A stretch of DNA of 64,000 nucleotides from a virus. This document shows, piece after piece, positions 5,045-64,000 of the stretch. Location: positions 1 through 64,000 of IMG/VR virus record IMGVR_UViG_3300032083_003484; one strand, 5' to 3'. The position numbers and the translations under genes are program-made. The notes beneath the pieces were generated by a model. The model saw only the letters and a program-made list of their open reading frames with translations, had not been told where the DNA came from and ran no database searches. How positions within the stretch are numbered: the first letter of the stretch is position 1; each line of letters opens with the position of its first letter.

Positions 5045-5055
5045 TATAAATAGTT
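5045..5055 (-). promoter_or_regulatory. Candidate late promoter AACTATTTATA
   Basis: Intergenic, 20 nt upstream of the ATG at 5024; recurrent motif. Confidence 0.65.
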
Positions 5056-21245: not shown

Positions 21246-22666
21246 TATTCGTCTACTCTAAACTTAAAGCCAGTTGGGTATTCATTATAAATAGTTCCTT
21301 CTTTAATAATGAACTTGAATTCATACAGGTACCCCGCTTCTAAGCTAGAGAAGTCAAAATCGAAATAAGAGCCTTGCTTATCGTAAGACAAAAGAGTGTG
21401 TTCTACTGAGCCTGTGCCATACTGAACAACATCAGTATTATCAACCTTTCTTACTACTTTATAGTAGATGTTGTCGACAAAATAGTTTTCTATTGCTGTG
21501 CTCGCCACCGTATAAACAGTTGGGGACCAGTTGCGTTTTCTAGTAAAGAGCCTTACCCTTGTGTCTATTCCTGTTCGACTATAAATGTCTTGTAAATTTG
21601 TAATAGAAAGAATTAAAGGTTCTATTTTATTATCTTCTTGCGCATTATAAGTTTTTAGATCTATTGTGCCTGTGTGGAAACAAGTTGAGTAATCTGCGTT
21701 AAACCATCGATCATACACTGTTGATGAAGTTGTGTTCAGATCAAATGAGCAAGAGTAAAGACCGGTATCAGCATAGCCGCCAGTCACTGGGTAGCTAACA
21801 GATACTGCTGAGTTTAGTTCTGTGCCACCTGACTCAGCATCAAAAATCTTTACATAAATCGGGCCGGTTCCTATTGCTGGAATGTTTTTTGCGATACCAC
21901 GAAAGTTATTATAAAGATAAACAGTATGAAGATTTTCTGTTGATAGCATTGAGGATGAAACATAAAAGTCTCCTCTTTGGTCCTTCACAGAAGAGTCCCA
22001 GCGAGCTTCTATTGTTGGGCGTTTAAAGAAAAACTCCGATGATCTTGCAAAGAACTTTTTCGTGTAATAAGAGTCAGAGTCTGTTTCCAAAGAGCCTGAG
22101 AGTCTTACAATAACTCCATAATTTGCTACGGTACTATCAATCCAATCCTCTACAAGGTCTGAAATATCAACTGATAAATCCTCGGTTCCTTCTGTTAGGC
22201 GATAAGTTTTGTTGTAGATAGCTGAATCAAGAAAATCGCCACCTGCTGTTGTCCAGCCGGTAGTGGTGGAAGCAGAGACCCAGTTTGATACGCCTAGATC
22301 TTTGTATTCGTCCATATCCATTCCACGGCCTTCGTCCCACGATCTAGAAACTGCTTGGACTATTAGATCGACGTTTCTTGGTGTCGTGAATGGGGTTTTA
22401 GCATTGAATAAGTTGAGGTAAAATGAAACGGAACCAGAGGCAGGAATCTGACCGCTGGTCCTTGCTGTGTTTATTTCTGCGGTGTCAAACTCAAATAAGG
22501 CACGGCTTTGTTCTACTGACGAGGTTGTTATGTTGCCATAGAGCTTAAAGATCTCAACAGAATCTGCTAAGCCCATGTTAGAACCGGTTGCCCTTGTTGT
22601 GCCACCAAACTTTGAGGCGTTTGTTATTGTATTATCTTTATTTGCAAAAAACTTTTTATAAGCCAT
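21245..22666 (-). CDS. Virion protein with DNRLRE/CBM96-like beta-sandwich domain
   Basis: SRALFEFD...VSRSWDEG...W..AGGD...VDISDLVEDW...NYGVIV...RPTIE pattern. Confidence 0.6.
   Translation of the reverse strand: MAYKKFFANKDNTITNASKFGGTTRATGSNMGLADSVEIFKLYGNITTSSVEQSRALFEFDTAEINTARTSGQIPASGSVSFYLNLFNAKTPFTTPRNVDLIVQAVSRSWDEGRGMDMDEYKDLGVSNWVSASTTTGWTTAGGDFLDSAIYNKTYRLTEGTEDLSVDISDLVEDWIDSTVANYGVIVRLSGSLETDSDSYYTKKFFARSSEFFFKRPTIEARWDSSVKDQRGDFYVSSSMLSTENLHTVYLYNNFRGIAKNIPAIGTGPIYVKIFDAESGGTELNSAVSVSYPVTGGYADTGLYSCSFDLNTTSSTVYDRWFNADYSTCFHTGTIDLKTYNAQEDNKIEPLILSITNLQDIYSRTGIDTRVRLFTRKRNWSPTVYTVASTAIENYFVDNIYYKVVRKVDNTDVVQYGTGSVEHTLLSYDKQGSYFDFDFSSLEAGYLYEFKFIIKEGTIYNEYPTGFKFRVDE
21286..21296 (-). 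promoter_or_regulatory. Candidate late promoter AACTATTTATA embedded in the upstream CDS
   Basis: Full 11-mer, 40 nt upstream of the 3066-aa gene start. Confidence 0.5.
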
Positions 22667-33952: not shown

Positions 33953-33969
33953 ACAAAACTACCTCTAAG

Positions 33970-33979
33970 ATAAATAGTT
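33970..33979 (-). promoter_or_regulatory. Candidate late promoter AACTATTTAT
   Basis: Intergenic, upstream of the SD GAGG and the ATG at 33952; heads the structural block. Confidence 0.65.
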
Positions 33980-33984
33980 CCGCC

Positions 33985-34689
33985 TTAGATTTCTCCGTTG
34001 TCCCACTCGGCTCTTAGATTTCGATATTTTTTTCTTACTTTTGTTAGAGAAGAAGTTATTTGTTTTGTGCTAAAGCCGGTAATCTCCCGCAGATAAACAT
34101 ATACAGCTTTTTTGTTAAATATATCAATCTGTTCTACTGACTCAAATAAAACTTCGACTGCTTCTAAGATTTTTCTATCTTGAGCGCTGGATGTTTCTTC
34201 CTTCCACCATACTATTTCTTCGTGGAGCACCTCAATAAACTCTGCTTTTGTGCGATCTTGGATGTAAGTGTTTCGAACGATAAGCTTTTCATCTAATACT
34301 GTATCAGAAACATCCAAGGCAACTTCTTTTTGAAGCTTCTTTTTTCTTTTCTTGGTCTCGGCAATAAACCAGTTCTTTGTGATCACTGAAAAGTAAGTAA
34401 AGGCCTTATAGCCCTTTTCAACATCAAACTTTTCTAAGATTGTAACCAAAAAGACTTTGCAATCTTCTTTTAGAATATCGCAATTTGGAAGTGAGTTAAA
34501 CTTATACGTATAAACAATCTTATCAACCAACTCGTCAAAAGCAGGTTGGATTAGTGTTACGTATAACTCTTCTCTTCTAGCTTTTGATTTTGATTTACAG
34601 TACTCAAGAATTGCGTCTTCGTGTACCTGCGTAAAATACATGTTTTTTTTCTTTGGATACTTGCTCTTCCTTCTCTTCTTCGTTGTCAT
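33985..34689 (-). CDS. Phage sigma factor, late-transcription (gp55-like)
   Basis: YFTQVHEDAILEY...KFDVEKGYKAFTYFSVITKNWFI region-2-like; C-terminal HTH YLREITGFSTKQIT; SD GAGGAG. Confidence 0.7.
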   Translation of the reverse strand: MTTKKRRKSKYPKKKNMYFTQVHEDAILEYCKSKSKARREELYVTLIQPAFDELVDKIVYTYKFNSLPNCDILKEDCKVFLVTILEKFDVEKGYKAFTYFSVITKNWFIAETKKRKKKLQKEVALDVSDTVLDEKLIVRNTYIQDRTKAEFIEVLHEEIVWWKEETSSAQDRKILEAVEVLFESVEQIDIFNKKAVYVYLREITGFSTKQITSSLTKVRKKYRNLRAEWDNGEI

Positions 34690-38498: not shown

Positions 38499-39552
38499 CG
38501 GTTCCTCCTAAGTTAAACCATTTAATTGTCCTTTTAATCCCTTCATCTAAAGATATTATTTCTTTTTCATACTCAGGAAATTCATTTCGAAACCTGTCCA
38601 TGGCCAAACTAACAATTTTTGGCGCCTCTTTTGTGGCTTCTGAAGGAAGCTTATTTTTCTTTATGGCTTCTATATTAAAAAAGCTAGCTACTTTATTGGC
38701 TAATTCATAAATTGTTATTTCCTCAACATCTCCACCTACATTATATACTAATTCTTTTCCATCTGTCAATATATATATTAAAATATAAACACAATTAGTA
38801 ATATAAAGGTAGTTTCTTCTTGAGGCGCCTTCATCTAGTAGATTAATATTTCCATTTTGCGCTTTAAAAAGAAAATCCTGCAGCACCCTTTCATCAGAGA
38901 ATAACGCTCCGGGACCATATGTTAAAGCGACTCTAGCTATTTTTGTTTCAACGTTATTGTTTTCTGCATATTGTTTGCAAAGTATCTCGCCTAGGCGTTT
39001 TGATACGATATAACACGATCGATTGTTCTGTAAGTCGAAAACACCATTATAGCTCTCCGGAGTGGGGACAAAGTCTGTAGGAGGAGTGCCATAGACCTCA
39101 CTAGTACTTAAAAATAAAAATTTTCCACCTTTTTTATCCATGTGCTCTAATATTGATTCAACACCCACTACATTTATCAAGCATGTTGCTATACTATTTT
39201 TTAAAAATTTGGCTGGTTGTCCATAACCAGAACAAAAAAAACAAAAATCAATTTTTTCTGGTATTTTAGAGTGTTCAATTCTTGTTGTACAATCCCATGA
39301 AAAATATTTTGCCGTATTATCTTCTACTATATGTTTAATTCTTTTCAGATTATCTTTTTTACTTTTAGACGTCAAAAAAAGATTAATATTTAAAGAAAAA
39401 CATTTATTAATATAAACAAAAAAATCAGCTAAAAAACCACCAATTAATCCATTTGCCCCAGTGATTAATATATTCGAATTTTTAAATTTTTCAATATTAA
39501 TTTTTTTACTTAAAAAGCTACATTCCTCATATATAACATCATAATTATACAT
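38491..39552 (-). CDS. NAD-dependent sugar epimerase/dehydratase (UDP-glucuronate decarboxylase-like SDR)
   Basis: ILITGANGLIG, FLSTSEVYG, YIVSK (YxxxK), TYGPG. Confidence 0.85.
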   Translation of the reverse strand: MYNYDVIYEECSFLSKKINIEKFKNSNILITGANGLIGGFLADFFVYINKCFSLNINLFLTSKSKKDNLKRIKHIVEDNTAKYFSWDCTTRIEHSKIPEKIDFCFFCSGYGQPAKFLKNSIATCLINVVGVESILEHMDKKGGKFLFLSTSEVYGTPPTDFVPTPESYNGVFDLQNNRSCYIVSKRLGEILCKQYAENNNVETKIARVALTYGPGALFSDERVLQDFLFKAQNGNINLLDEGASRRNYLYITNCVYILIYILTDGKELVYNVGGDVEEITIYELANKVASFFNIEAIKKNKLPSEATKEAPKIVSLAMDRFRNEFPEYEKEIISLDEGIKRTIKWFNLGGTDD

Positions 39553-57438: not shown

Positions 57439-57968
57439 TAGATACAGATCTGTTCGCTAATTCTATCACTATTGCGAGTTACTGCTTCCGATAGTAGATC
57501 AGCACGTCTAATGATCCGACGAGCATAAGCTCTAGATCTAGGTGTGCACTGATTTCCAGCATTATAATGACAGAGAGGATCAGCCCACTCTTGTTGGTGA
57601 TCTACAGAGAAAAGCTGGAACGGCTCTGTTGAGATCGATCTAGAAAACCTATAATGAAAATCTTTTACCGCATTGACTCCATCCTTAATTAAATCACAAT
57701 TCTCCAATCTTCCTTCTTCACAAAAGTATCTAGGATTGATCTGCAATGGTCCGTGGCAACAACCTGTGTAAGAAACAACTCCTTTTTGAAGTCTAGATTC
57801 TTCCCAGGCTACCGATACAGCAATTAGGGGTGAAACATTTCTAGCAATTGCTTCACTAGCAATCACCTCACAAGTATTAAACCTTTCAGGGTTCAGGACA
57901 TGATCTGGAGTGTTTAGTACTCCAGCAGTAAAAAGGATATAGCAAATCCCATAGCTTAACTTAACCAT
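57438..57968 (-). CDS. Lytic transglycosylase (SLT-like) with signal peptide
   Basis: AWEESRL, GPLQIN, HYNAG...YARRI; hydrophobic N-terminus; Cys-rich. Confidence 0.75.
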   Translation of the reverse strand: MVKLSYGICYILFTAGVLNTPDHVLNPERFNTCEVIASEAIARNVSPLIAVSVAWEESRLQKGVVSYTGCCHGPLQINPRYFCEEGRLENCDLIKDGVNAVKDFHYRFSRSISTEPFQLFSVDHQQEWADPLCHYNAGNQCTPRSRAYARRIIRRADLLSEAVTRNSDRISEQICI

Positions 57969-58890
57969 TGATAATCTCCGTTTTGTATTTAATAACTGCT
58001 AGTTCTTTAGCCTTAGCTTCTACCATAATATGCATATTGTTATTATAGTTATTAATAGTATTATATATATAGTTAGAATGTTTCTCTTCTCTAATCTTAA
58101 TATTGTTCTGTTCTTCTCTAGCTGACTCTGAGTAATGTACCACAGGGGTGATATCCCCCCAGGTCGACAAAGCTAGTTCTAGCGCATCTTGTTCAGACTG
58201 ACCTCCTGTACAAAGCTTGTGATGGTGGTAATCAAAAACAATAGGGATCCCAGTTTGTTCATGAACCCCTTCGTAAAGATCTTTTGTTGAGTAGAGAGAA
58301 ACCTTATCATCATTTTCCACCGTTAGTCTTGATCTAACTGCTGGAGAAAGTTTGTTTACATTCTCACAAAACGTTTTCAGAGCACTTGGCTTGTCTCCAT
58401 AAGCAGCACCAACGTGAATGTTGATTTTAGCCCAGTGATCTCTTGGGAGACCCATCAAATCCATAACCTTGCCGTGAATCTCCAAATCAGTAATGGTGTT
58501 TTGGACTACACGCTCTTTAGGTGAGGCCAACTTGTTGAAAGGCCCAGGGTGGTATGTAAGTCTATGGTTGTGCTTTTTAGCAAAGTCACCAACTTCTTTT
58601 AGCTTCTTAGAGATCTCCTTGATGTCCGGCATATCATCAATGTTGTAATGAGATGCCCAAGGAAACATGTTAGAACTCATTCGAAAAAACTTTACATTGT
58701 TTTGCTCATTCCACTTGACAATCTCAAGCAGGTCTGTTATATTTAGTAGAGTTAGTTGAGAGGCATAATGGATACCCTTCGCATCAAAAGTTTTTTTAAT
58801 CATTGTTCTGTTAGTAGTGATGCGTTGACTCTTAGGTCGTTCACTGAAACCCATGTTAATGCAAGCGTAGCCGATATAGTCGCTATTCAT
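57961..58890 (-). CDS. uvdE: UV-damage endonuclease
   Basis: IGYACIN, FFRMSS..FP, HPG.F..L.S, INIHVG, LTVENDD, FDYHHH, HYSE, EAKAKE; SD AGGAGG. Confidence 0.93.
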   Translation of the reverse strand: MNSDYIGYACINMGFSERPKSQRITTNRTMIKKTFDAKGIHYASQLTLLNITDLLEIVKWNEQNNVKFFRMSSNMFPWASHYNIDDMPDIKEISKKLKEVGDFAKKHNHRLTYHPGPFNKLASPKERVVQNTITDLEIHGKVMDLMGLPRDHWAKINIHVGAAYGDKPSALKTFCENVNKLSPAVRSRLTVENDDKVSLYSTKDLYEGVHEQTGIPIVFDYHHHKLCTGGQSEQDALELALSTWGDITPVVHYSESAREEQNNIKIREEKHSNYIYNTINNYNNNMHIMVEAKAKELAVIKYKTEIING

Positions 58891-59045
58891 AATCCTCCTG
58901 TGAGTTGGCCCGGAAAGCCCGGTGTGTATATTAGACGAACGAGCGACGGATCTTATCCACTTTTCGAACGCTTTTTTCCGATAAGTTTACCGGTCCTGGC
59001 GGCGCAAGCGACCGACGACCAGTACGAGGCGTTCGGGGAGATGTC

Positions 59046-61789: not shown

Positions 61790-61975
61790 TTATTTATTTA
61801 AGCTTTCCCAAACTGTTTCAAATAAATAATGTAAAAACATCATCAAGAAAGTTAAAAAAATTGTAAGCGTTAAAGATTTTTTAAGTTCGCCAATCCAAAT
61901 CCAAGAAACGGTACCGGCCACTGTGGTAGAAAAAATTCGCCAAACAATAACTTTGTAAATTAAAGGTTTTTTCAT
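61790..61975 (-). CDS. Small membrane protein (DUF2061-like)
   Basis: KVIVWRIFST...HYLFETVW. Confidence 0.6.
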   Translation of the reverse strand: MKKPLIYKVIVWRIFSTTVAGTVSWIWIGELKKSLTLTIFLTFLMMFLHYLFETVWESLNK

Positions 61976-61984
61976 AATTTAGAT

Positions 61985-62016
61985 AAAAGAAAAGGGCGGG
62001 AAGAACCCGCCCTTTC
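61985..62016 (-). terminator. Rho-independent terminator after the ECF sigma gene
   Basis: AAAGGGCGGG-TTCTT-CCCGCCCTTT followed by a U-rich tail on the minus strand. Confidence 0.9.
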
Positions 62017-62040: not shown

Positions 62041-63192
62041 TTATAGACCCAAAGTCTCTTTTACGACTGCAGCAATTGTTTCTTCTAAAGAAAGTTCTTC
62101 GTTTTTGCGATATCTTTCATCTGGTCGCCTAGGAAACATAGATCCTCGCCTAGTGGCTGTCGCCGGCGTTGGGTTTGGTGATGAGCCGGCCATTGATCCT
62201 CGCTTTGGAAGTTCATAGTCCAAGTCGATTCCGGGCTCCATAAGGTCGGCATCCGGATCTTCTGGCATACCCTGGTATTCGGCGTCCTCATAGTTCATAA
62301 GATCATCTATAGCGCCCTCAGCTTCTTTCTCGCTCCGAAATCGGAACCCAGGCCGAACGTTGTGTATTTCTTTAAACATATCTGAAAAAAGATCGTTTAG
62401 ATAATCCAAGCCCATTTCCGGCTTGGCTGTTTCGCCTTCTCGGATATCGCCGGGCTTCACACCACCAGCAAATGCGATTCGAAGAGTTTTCTTGACGCCT
62501 TCATCACCTGGAGAGTGCAGCCATCGATCAATTCTTTCACGTGACCGAGAAATTTCACGACCAACTTCTCCGACAGTGTTATAACCAAGCTCGACACGCA
62601 GTTCCTCGACTGACTTTGGATCGGCCGCAAACTGATTTAGGGTAACAATTTTTTGCCGATCGTTGAGGTTGACTTTGTCATCCTTGATTGCTTGGACCAT
62701 AGCATCGAAAGCTTCATTGCGCTCTTTGTCAAGAAGAATCTGCTCGGGGTTCTTAATTTTTGGAACCAACGGATAGATTTCGCTCTTGTCGGACATACTT
62801 GTGATATCCGGCTCGCCTTCAGCTGCGCCGCCACCGGCAAAAGGAAGCTCTTTGCGTCCTGCTCGGAAACTGTCAATTAATGCATTTTTCACAATAGCGC
62901 CGGCCCAAGTGGAGAATGCAGAATCTCCTCGGAACCCACCAATTTGAGTCATGATTTTGATAAGGGCGCTTTGCATTGCGTCCTCGGCGTCAGCTTCGTT
63001 TCCGCCGGCTAGCTTAAGCGCAAGAAAACGATGCTTTTTTGAAAGTCTGGTTAGAAGTTCTTCCATTGCCGGACTATTTGGGTTTTCTTTGGCTTTGGCA
63101 GCAAGCGCTTCCATGCTGTCCCCTTTCTCTTCATCAATGCGTGCAATCTCCTCTTGGATGATTTGCAGCAGCCTAGTTTTCTTGATTTTCAC
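62041..63192 (-). CDS. RpoE-like ECF sigma factor with N-terminal leader and C-terminal extension
   Basis: Region 2 DAEDAMQSALIKI...FRGDSAFSTWAGAIVKNALID; region 4 LNDRQK...SVEELRVELG..VGEVGREISRSR; SD AAGGAG, GTG start. Confidence 0.85.
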   Translation of the reverse strand: MKIKKTRLLQIIQEEIARIDEEKGDSMEALAAKAKENPNSPAMEELLTRLSKKHRFLALKLAGGNEADAEDAMQSALIKIMTQIGGFRGDSAFSTWAGAIVKNALIDSFRAGRKELPFAGGGAAEGEPDITSMSDKSEIYPLVPKIKNPEQILLDKERNEAFDAMVQAIKDDKVNLNDRQKIVTLNQFAADPKSVEELRVELGYNTVGEVGREISRSRERIDRWLHSPGDEGVKKTLRIAFAGGVKPGDIREGETAKPEMGLDYLNDLFSDMFKEIHNVRPGFRFRSEKEAEGAIDDLMNYEDAEYQGMPEDPDADLMEPGIDLDYELPKRGSMAGSSPNPTPATATRRGSMFPRRPDERYRKNEELSLEETIAAVVKETLGL

Positions 63193-63223
63193 TTTAAAAA
63201 ACTCCTTATAAGTTATGTTTTGT

Positions 63224-63234
63224 TATAAATAGTT
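63224..63234 (-). promoter_or_regulatory. Candidate late promoter AACTATTTATA
   Basis: Between the upstream terminator and the ECF sigma SD. Confidence 0.65.
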
Positions 63235-63243
63235 AGTCAAAAC

Positions 63244-63274
63244 AAAAAAAGCCCCGCCGAAAAAGGCGGGGCTT
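63244..63274 (-). terminator. Rho-independent terminator
   Basis: AAGCCCCGCC-TTTTTC-GGCGGGGCTT followed by a T-run on the minus strand. Confidence 0.9.
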
Positions 63275-63295
63275 GGATTCGCAAGATTTTTTTTC

Positions 63296-63556
63296 TTAGA
63301 AGTCTATGCCGTCATCGTTTGCCGGGAGGGCTTCGGAAGTTTCCGCATTTCTTAGCGCATCAACTTCTGCATTTGCGTGAGCGGATGCCTCATCGACATC
63401 AGCACCGGCAGCTTCGGCTTCTTCGAAAGCGCTTTTCCAAAATTCCCACTCTGCGTCGGTAAGACCTTCAATTGGCATGGGGCTTTTGGATTCGGCAAGA
63501 GCAGCCTCAAGCTCTTCTTTGATAATCTTGACAAGTTTTTGTTTTGTGATTTTCAT
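63296..63556 (-). CDS. Small acidic protein with MKITKQKLVKIIKEE leader
   Basis: SD AAGGAG; leader shared with the ECF sigma. Confidence 0.7.
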   Translation of the reverse strand: MKITKQKLVKIIKEELEAALAESKSPMPIEGLTDAEWEFWKSAFEEAEAAGADVDEASAHANAEVDALRNAETSEALPANDDGIDF

Positions 63557-63577: not shown

Positions 63578-64000
63578 TTAATCCAAGCGAGCAAGTCGTG
63601 GGTTTGGGGCAATTGAAAGCTCGGCATCACCAATAAGCAGCACTTCACCTTCGGTCCAAGCAACAAGCGGGATTGGGTTTCCGTTAACAGCGTCGTGCCC
63701 GCCGGAACCAATTGTTGGGACAGCAGAAACACCAAAGTTGGCCAAGGGTGAAAGCTCATTGGCGGCGCAAAGCCCATCTTGATTAAAATCTTGCCAAACA
63801 ACCAACCCAGAAAAAATTTTATCATTTTTTGTTATAAGGTTGTCCATGTCTAAATCAAAAGAAGCAAGGTGGTCAAATCCGTCGGTCCAATCGCCTTGAA
63901 CGTTTCCAAAAAGTTCTGCGCCGGAAGTTATAACGCCATCACCATTCCAATCATAAGCCAAAAAGCCGTCGCCACCATTAGGCCATGCAATTGCTTGTTC
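63578..64000 (-). CDS. Ca2+-binding protein with FrpC self-processing-module-like domain (5' end outside window)
   Basis: Frame stays open to the window edge: EQAIAWPNGGDGFLAYDWNGDGVITSGAELFG...DGFDHLASFDLDMDNLI...FSGLVVWQDFNQDG...NEL. Confidence 0.75.
   Translation of the reverse strand, partial: EQAIAWPNGGDGFLAYDWNGDGVITSGAELFGNVQGDWTDGFDHLASFDLDMDNLITKNDKIFSGLVVWQDFNQDGLCAANELSPLANFGVSAVPTIGSGGHDAVNGNPIPLVAWTEGEVLLIGDAELSIAPNPRLARLD

Follow-up and report, generated by a model that had tools for sequence, protein, structure and literature searches.

A candidate capsid-delivered ECF sigma factor of an uncultured T4-like phage

We analyzed by computation a 64-kb window, the first 64 kb of the 76.7-kb viral contig IMGVR_UViG_3300032083_003484 (completeness rating 42%), and found near its end a gene for a sigma factor of the extracytoplasmic function (ECF) type, at 62041..63192 on the minus strand, that begins with a short leader peptide also carried by otherwise unrelated phage proteins. 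We propose that the gene product is a precursor (pro-sigma) that would be made late and enter the head by means of its leader; once the prohead protease had trimmed it, it would travel with the DNA and read a promoter class of its own. Among the four mechanisms that we weighed this is the most likely one, and we give it somewhat less than an even chance. Two relatives whose sigma proteins are 83% identical, G001 (155 kb) and G002 (169 kb, 93% complete), were fetched whole. The phage is present in samples of seawater and of an estuarine environment. All features of the window given below lie on its minus strand.

Results

The sigma gene has a GTG start and encodes 383 amino acids (aa) before its stop codon. 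Pfam, PHROGs, a profile search of the Protein Data Bank (PDB) and Foldseek all recognized its product as a sigma factor. Pfam Sigma70_r2 (PF04542) matched residues 56-113 (E 5.7e-11), and the PHROGs match was to a phage sigma family. A profile of 25 homologues matched the solved ECF sigma factors AlgU, SigW and RpoE over both domains, with AlgU (8z6g_B) at E 2e-17, profile positions 41-234 against chain residues 12-188. The AlphaFold model had a mean predicted local distance difference test score (pLDDT) of 63, the sigma2 and sigma4 domains reaching 70-87, and the top structures that Foldseek returned for it were E. coli sigmaE, AlgU, SigH and SigW. Region 2 (residues ~27-113; 62854..63114) was supported by Pfam, by the PDB profile, by a pLDDT of 70-78 and by a TM score of 0.8 to region 2 of E. 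coli sigmaE. Region 4 (residues ~149-245; 62458..62748) was covered by the PDB profile to position 234 at a pLDDT of 80-87 and ends at the I-R-E of residues 250-252. The first-pass annotation had called the protein an RpoE-like ECF sigma, and these results bear it out: with regions 2 and 4 both found and regions 1.1 and 3 lacking, the product belongs to the ECF family (group 4) of sigma-70 factors. The linker between them (residues 114-148) is disordered in the model and no region 3 fold appears. Behind region 4 there is an acidic C-terminal extension (residues 254-366; 62095..62433; isoelectric point 4.5), in which a small helical part (helices at 262-307, pLDDT ~80) is followed by a disordered stretch, acidic/proline-rich and basic (pLDDT <50); homologues of 249 aa lack this extension. 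This contig, G001 and G002 each have a single Sigma70_r2 gene.

The gene had also been described as a transcription unit of its own, and the terminator, the CTATTTATA motif, the gene and a second terminator were all located at the locus. An intrinsic terminator (63249..63274; a 10-bp stem with 8 GC pairs and then a T run) closes the upstream operon, which consists of a 115-aa leader gene, a lipoprotein gene and an 86-aa leader gene. The late-type promoter motif AACTATTTATA (core CTATTTAT) follows at 63224..63234, 32 nucleotides (nt) 5' of the sigma start, and an AAGGAG read from the sequence as the ribosome-binding site (63202..63207), 9 nt 5' of the GTG, is kept at homologous loci. On the 3' side the gene is closed by an intrinsic terminator with an 11-bp stem (61990..62016). 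The upstream hairpin is also present 5' of nearly all sigma homologues, and the terminator, late motif and untranslated region (UTR) are kept 5' of most of the metagenomic ones. A promoter scan of the locus found no sigma70-like promoter on the strand of the sigma gene. The candidate TTGACT-N17-CATAAC, which overlaps the late motif, was ruled out, its -10 being poor and its -35 not conserved. Just 3' of the sigma terminator lies a gene for a 61-aa predicted membrane protein (61790-61975), and the 526-aa lipoprotein (63578-64000 and on to contig position 65158) sits between two leader genes. Neither tblastn of the sigma against cultured phages nor megablast of 24 kb of the window was informative, the former giving nothing useful and the latter no phage match.

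The late motif has 15 matches in the window at no more than one mismatch, against 2.6 expected, and 13 of them are on the minus strand. Copies stand 5' of a 780-aa gene of the tail/baseplate block (33969..33979), of a 3066-aa gene (21286..21296) and of a 316-aa gene in the baseplate block (5045..5055). In G001 and G002, CTATTTAT lies 25-50 nt 5' of the scaffold-like gene, of the genes for the prohead protease, the baseplate and the giant tail proteins, and of nearly all leader genes. The first-pass annotation had proposed to check leader genes against the late motif, and the two are associated in G002, where the motif is found at 5 of 6 leader genes vs 9 of the 192 remaining genes (Fisher 4.8e-6). 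Its coding-strand sequence, TATTTATA, is the reverse complement of the T4 late TATAAATA, and every genome has one gene for a distant gp55-like late sigma (33985..34689 in the window; phrog_234, E 4.5e-4, or 1e-5 on the genome). CTATTTATA was therefore read as a presumable late promoter. The gp55-like protein, which showed only weak matches to region 2 of solved sigmas, is its likely reader. The earlier claim of a late promoter thus holds in that the motif also fronts scaffold, protease and baseplate genes, while the late timing itself is something that we infer.

The leader comprises residues 1-22 of the sigma (63127..63192), matches our leader profile A3 and contains I-Q-E at 12-14 and I-D-E at 19-21. 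In the translated open reading frame (ORF) the protein begins with MKIKKTRLLQIIQEEIARIDEE and ends with ...LSLEETIAAVVKETLGL. The model predicts the leader as a helix (residues 5-22, low confidence) that is not docked on the core. The neighboring gene (63296..63556) encodes an 86-aa acidic protein that begins with MKITKQKLVKIIKEELEAALAE and gave the top leader-profile match in the contig (E 1e-11). BLASTP of the sigma against this protein aligned residues 1-16 alone (9 of 16 identical, 14 of 16 similar), confirming that the same leader is present on two otherwise unrelated neighbors. The contig has another two leader genes shortly after the end of the window (contig 65206-65553 and 65634-66188), which brings its number to 4; G001 and G002 have 6-8.

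A scan of IMG/VR with a degenerate DNA pattern showed how widely the leader is spread. At least 120 stretches matched, often as clusters of 2-5, and they encode small proteins with unrelated bodies. Leader positions outside those fixed in the search pattern were still conserved (residue T4 in 82%, K9 in 63%, Q10 in 57% and K13 in 65%), and past residue 22 the sequences become linkers rich in Gly, Asp, Pro and Ser. With a profile of 75 leaders, 1-24 clustered copies were found in each of 21 related contigs. Peptidase_S77, the T4 gp21-type protease, was encoded by 18 of the 23 leader-bearing contigs tested. These include each of the three with a completeness of 90% or more, and the five contigs that lack the protease are fragments. 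In 5 of 19 genomes a leader gene lies no more than 1 kb from the gene for the protease, where 1.03 such genomes were expected (P ~0.002, the genomes being mutually related). T4 has its prohead core genes 67 and 68 upstream of the protease, and a 75-aa leader gene directly upstream of the protease in G002 occupies the place of gp67/gp68. Judged from these sequences, the leader is a real module, conserved at the protein level, that we met solely in T4-like phages possessing a gp21-type protease and that is enriched next to the protease gene.

Pfam and PHROGs searches of about 25 leader cargo proteins recognized one enzyme fold besides the sigma, a GNAT acetyltransferase with the leader (L059:4679-5431, minus strand), and phrog_7338 matched two leader proteins weakly. 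The leader was also met on L070, a contig labeled GVMAG; because L070 has phage genes in common with G002, it does not show that giant viruses have the leader. A conserved protein of ~130 aa is encoded 3' of the protease (L013:6196-6588, minus strand; alignment A4), directly so in roughly every second relative examined. Its start, MKKSELKK.IKPLVKEC.KE, is loosely leader-like, and it has 6 [LI]xE motifs against 2.0 expected; by analogy it may be a prohead core protein comparable to T4 gp68. The alignment of the leader with this protein by hhalign was weak (probability 14%), and the stretch IDLIKEEK of T4 gp67 merely resembles the leader. A ribosomal protein S21-like gene lies inside the head module two genes 3' of the protease (L013:5862-6188, minus strand) and is kept across the clade, in the same position in many relatives (L146-L155).

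The protease gp21 of T4 cleaves after L/I-x-E, the T4 internal (IP) proteins have in common only a 10-19-residue N-terminal targeting propeptide, and T4 Alt is trimmed at its two termini (PMC9026906, PMC3012670). In the sigma, [LI]xE occurs five times (residues 12, 19, 250, 317 and 369); three of these motifs are conserved and none falls in the 227-residue core. The first-pass annotation had stated that such sites flank the sigma core, and this is what we found: IDE at 19-21 and IRE at 250-252 stand on its two sides, [LIMV]xE being kept there in 24 of 24 and 17 of 25 homologues, respectively. The I-x-E at residues 12-14, which like that at 19-21 is kept in 24 of 24 sigma homologues, is invariant across the leader family, and 56 of 110 leaders have a second [LIMV]xE ending at residue 21 or 22. 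The cores of the sigma family together contain 22 [LI]xE motifs where 60 were expected from shuffles, and the genome-wide ratio of observed to expected is 1.17. This depletion fits exposure to the protease, as soft evidence. Elsewhere, the 526-aa lipoprotein has 1 motif against 6.1 expected, and the strongest excess in the genome of G002 is seen in a 362-aa protein (111708-112796, minus strand; 21 against 5.8 expected), which could be a second scaffold-like protein degraded by the protease.

We collected about 60 sigma homologues. Their leader and last 16 residues are near-invariant and are the best-conserved parts, the core being 32-50% identical and region 4 mosaic in appearance. The leader codons of these homologues show 59 synonymous differences, and the protein sequence of the leader is therefore under selection. 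In a second explanation the protein is a middle-gene sigma of the usual kind, produced early by read-through or from a promoter that the scans missed, with the leader as a passenger of cassette recombination; the conserved flanks (terminator, promoter, UTR and leader on one side, the C-terminal end and terminator on the other) would then have been exchanged as DNA. The mosaic region 4 agrees with it, as does the fact that the upstream DNA and leader are nearly identical among many homologues whose cores are only 28-47% identical. Contigs from four RNA libraries, which cover relatives of the region without strand, ends or timing, also point that way: these metatranscriptome contigs match the window up to 63129, that is, sigma codon 21, and then diverge, so that a recombination boundary coincides with the leader end. 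However, the distant lineages L208-L210 and L217/218 keep the leader residues despite many synonymous changes and a different UTR. The gene moreover has strong terminators on both sides and no sigma70-like promoter on its strand, and the TTGACT beside the motif is unconserved. We therefore regard an early-made sigma with a passenger leader as improbable.

The conserved C-terminal helix ...LSLEETIAAVVKETLGL (62044..62094) is kept across the family and is preceded by L-E-E (369-371). The terminal sequence SLEETIAAVVKETLGL is conserved to the same degree as the leader, and its role may be that of a propeptide, an autoinhibitor or a partner-binding tail. One sigma lineage (P0010) has a copy of SLEETI also at the border between sigma4 and the extension. 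No other protein of G002 ends in this way, and the helix, being unique to the sigma, was ruled out as a second general tag. The helix that the first-pass annotation had seen here is thus real and conserved; its resemblance to the leader is loose and found no support.

The genomes that carry the sigma also carry an ECF-like promoter, TGTGGATAAGATCC-N10-CGTCTAAC (GGATAAGATCC-N10-CGTCTAAC in short), with 11 copies in this contig and 19 in G002, all at a constant spacing and pointing at downstream genes. Ten of the 11 lie beyond the window; the copy within it, GGATAAGATCC-N10-CGTCTAA at 58930..58958, stands 5' of a UvdE gene (57961-58890). The genes behind this promoter are those for a gp32-like single-stranded DNA-binding protein, RecA/UvsX, a DNA methylase, a DnaE-type polymerase, AAA with DUF2201 and UvdE, together with arrays of small ORFs. 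Throughout IMG/VR, nearly all contigs with the exact motif also bear the sigma. Where metagenome loci encode a sigma lineage that is 44-47% identical, they have the variant TGAATAAGATCC-N10-CGTCTAAT, the promoter shifting with the diverged sigma from TGGATAAG...CGTCTAAC to TGAATAAG...CGTCTAAT. From this co-occurrence and co-variation the GGATAAGATCC-N10-CGTCTAAC set is a candidate regulon of the sigma.

A different reader of these promoters, either a host ECF sigma or sigma70 with an activator as at a MotA-like middle promoter, would leave the phage sigma with other targets. The AAC usual for a -35 is missing from the -35 part, GGATAAGATCC comes close to a palindrome in this lineage, and the specificity of the phage sigma was deduced solely from co-occurrence, all of which would suit such a reader. 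On the other hand, the TGAATAAG variant, which accompanies another sigma lineage, does not preserve the palindrome, and each genome has one Sigma70_r2 gene. A CGTC -10 and a spacer of 15-16 nt are ECF-like, and the region is a poor fit to the sigma70 hexamers. Of the explanations considered, a different reader is the one that we find hardest to credit.

There are apparently three promoter classes in these genomes (G002 76-145 kb; window positions 38769, 46471 and 51970): perfect host-type TTGACA-N16-18-TATAAT, the ECF-like promoter and the late CTATTTATA. The DnaE-type gene encodes a DNA polymerase III alpha subunit with PHP, alpha and finger domains (G002 126262-129705, corresponding to L011:6265-9705, minus strand). 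Such a polymerase would be unusual in a T4-like phage if it replaced the T4 gp43-type family B polymerase, which was not searched for.

Discussion

In the mechanism that we favor, the pro-sigma would consist of an ECF core (residues ~23-250) between an N-terminal head-loading leader and an acidic C-terminal extension with its terminal helix, and it would be transcribed late alongside the structural genes. The leader would bring it into the prohead core, where a gp21-type prohead protease would cut after the Glu of (I/L)-x-E motifs at the domain borders. The trimmed sigma would exit the capsid with the DNA and, in the next cell, bind the host core RNA polymerase (RNAP). There it would read the GGATAAGATCC-N10-CGTCTAAC promoters of small ORFs and of replication and recombination genes, while host sigma70 would work in parallel on the consensus early promoters of the phage. 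As an account of what the particle carries, virion cargo that redirects host core RNAP to private ECF-type promoters from the first moment of infection, it is tentative, a possibility that we rate slightly short of even.

The strongest competitor keeps the late synthesis of the sigma and confines its action to the producing cell, where the ECF-like promoters that it switches on would form an additional class, very late or boosting, with recombination-dependent replication, methylation, repair and accessory ORFs as the targets. The leader would then serve oligomerization, chaperone binding or localization to the assembly site and not packaging. The late-type promoter on the sigma gene agrees with this, and host-type promoters already serve the early genes. 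T4 gene 32 is also expressed late, a parallel to the gp32-like gene, which has a host-type and an ECF-like promoter. Action in the producing cell leaves unexplained, however, why the leader occurs in phages with gp21-type proteases and is enriched beside the protease gene, why it has an I-x-E, and why the core is poor in such motifs. The dense arrays of promoter-plus-small-ORF cassettes, moreover, look like early host-takeover regions, not late ones. We consider it rather unlikely that the sigma acts in the producing cell only.

Several observations weigh against a packaged, trimmed and injected sigma. G002 has five perfect consensus sigma70 promoters on the gene strand, where we estimate that well under one would be expected (looser sigma70 matches there are barely above shuffles). 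The gp32-like gene of G002 has an ECF-like promoter and a perfect TTGACA-N17-TATAAT in tandem, and its orthologues in sigma-less relatives have sigma70-type promoters. Because perfect sigma70-type promoters are present, early transcription would not need a delivered sigma; the host sigma can start the infection, and delivery would be optional. For an unpackaged sigma, the ECF-like promoters would simply fire late. That the sigma is made late was deduced from the sharing of a promoter alone, and the gp55-like assignment is weak. The contig itself, as a 42% fragment, is without a head module, and for that reason the protease was seen only in relatives. The leader profile matched nothing in Syn9, S-PM2, P-SSM2, S-SM2, HTVC008M, Mel-JY01, C48C1 or T4 (immuto gave one borderline match of 10 residues), and since the cultured T4-like phages tested are without the leader, no published virion proteome could be used. 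Cultured phages searched by tblastn with a 25-aa leader and with a leader protein of 104 aa yielded no useful match, and the leader string did not turn up any relevant literature. In the major capsid protein there are 9 [LI]xE motifs against 4.2 expected, so that depletion is no general mark of head proteins, and the depletion in the sigma cores was computed on related, non-independent sequences with two cellular ECFs as the only controls. Finally, because the upstream DNA and leader are nearly identical among many homologues with diverged cores, cassette recombination could account for some of the conservation at the termini.

Taken together, the ECF sigma, its late-type promoter, the leader module with its protease link, the bracketing motifs and the candidate regulon speak in part for the late, packaged, trimmed and injected sigma of the first-pass annotation; one argument for it loses ground, as a packaged sigma is unnecessary for starting infection. 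Delivery, if it occurs, would add a third strategy to the two that package a polymerase or an RNAP-modifying enzyme. The phage routes known are packaged whole polymerases (N4, phiKZ), packaged modifiers (T4 Alt) and factors that are synthesized once the phage has entered. Takeover by a delivered sigma would cost less, and our literature search found no packaged sigma described. With the sigma, the MKITK..LKQIIKEE leader that is widespread in uncultured marine T4-like phages gains a cargo of known biochemical function, and the capsid-loading idea thereby becomes testable. If the idea is true, the genes with a leader might be taken for the arsenal that these abundant phages inject. The sigma and its promoter, a compact pair, would also be a candidate orthogonal expression part.

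The phage sigma has the same sigma2 and sigma4 fold as the cellular ECF sigmas of the RpoE/AlgU/SigW type, and the cellular ECF hits P0026 and P0027 have the motif FRGDSAFSTW in common with it. It differs from them in the N-terminal leader (~25 extra residues), in the C-terminal extension (~130 residues), in having no recognizable anti-sigma partner in its unit, and in being phage-borne behind a late phage promoter. The pro-sigmaE and pro-sigmaK of Bacillus sporulation are inactive precursors whose N-terminal pro-sequence is cut off by a dedicated protease. The proposed removable N-terminus would make the phage sigma a precursor of a similar kind, its inactivity before cleavage being a guess; in contrast, pro-sigmaE and pro-sigmaK are group 3 sigmas, are cut by membrane proteases and are not packaged.

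The capsid-targeting sequence (CTS) cargo of T4 (IPI, IPII, IPIII and Alt) likewise consists of otherwise unrelated proteins with a short N-terminal peptide in common, encoded in polymorphic gene clusters; it is expressed late and cut after (L/I)-x-E by a gp21-type protease, as we propose for the sigma. T4 Alt is a packaged protein that reprograms host RNAP (PMC9026906, PMC3012670). The leader described here is a different and longer peptide (MKITKxQLKQIIKEE vs MKTYQEFIAE), and because its profile matches nothing in T4 it is an analogue of the CTS and not a member by sequence. Where the cargo of the T4 system includes an RNAP-modifying enzyme, that of the present one includes a sigma factor among up to 24 cargo genes per genome, and the system is known from sequence alone. 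The virion RNA polymerases of N4 and of the phiKZ type are, as we propose for the sigma, late-made transcription machinery that is carried in the particle and reads phage promoters at the start of infection. Those polymerases are complete and do not need the host enzyme, whereas here only a specificity subunit of ~26 kDa, dependent on host core RNAP, would be delivered.

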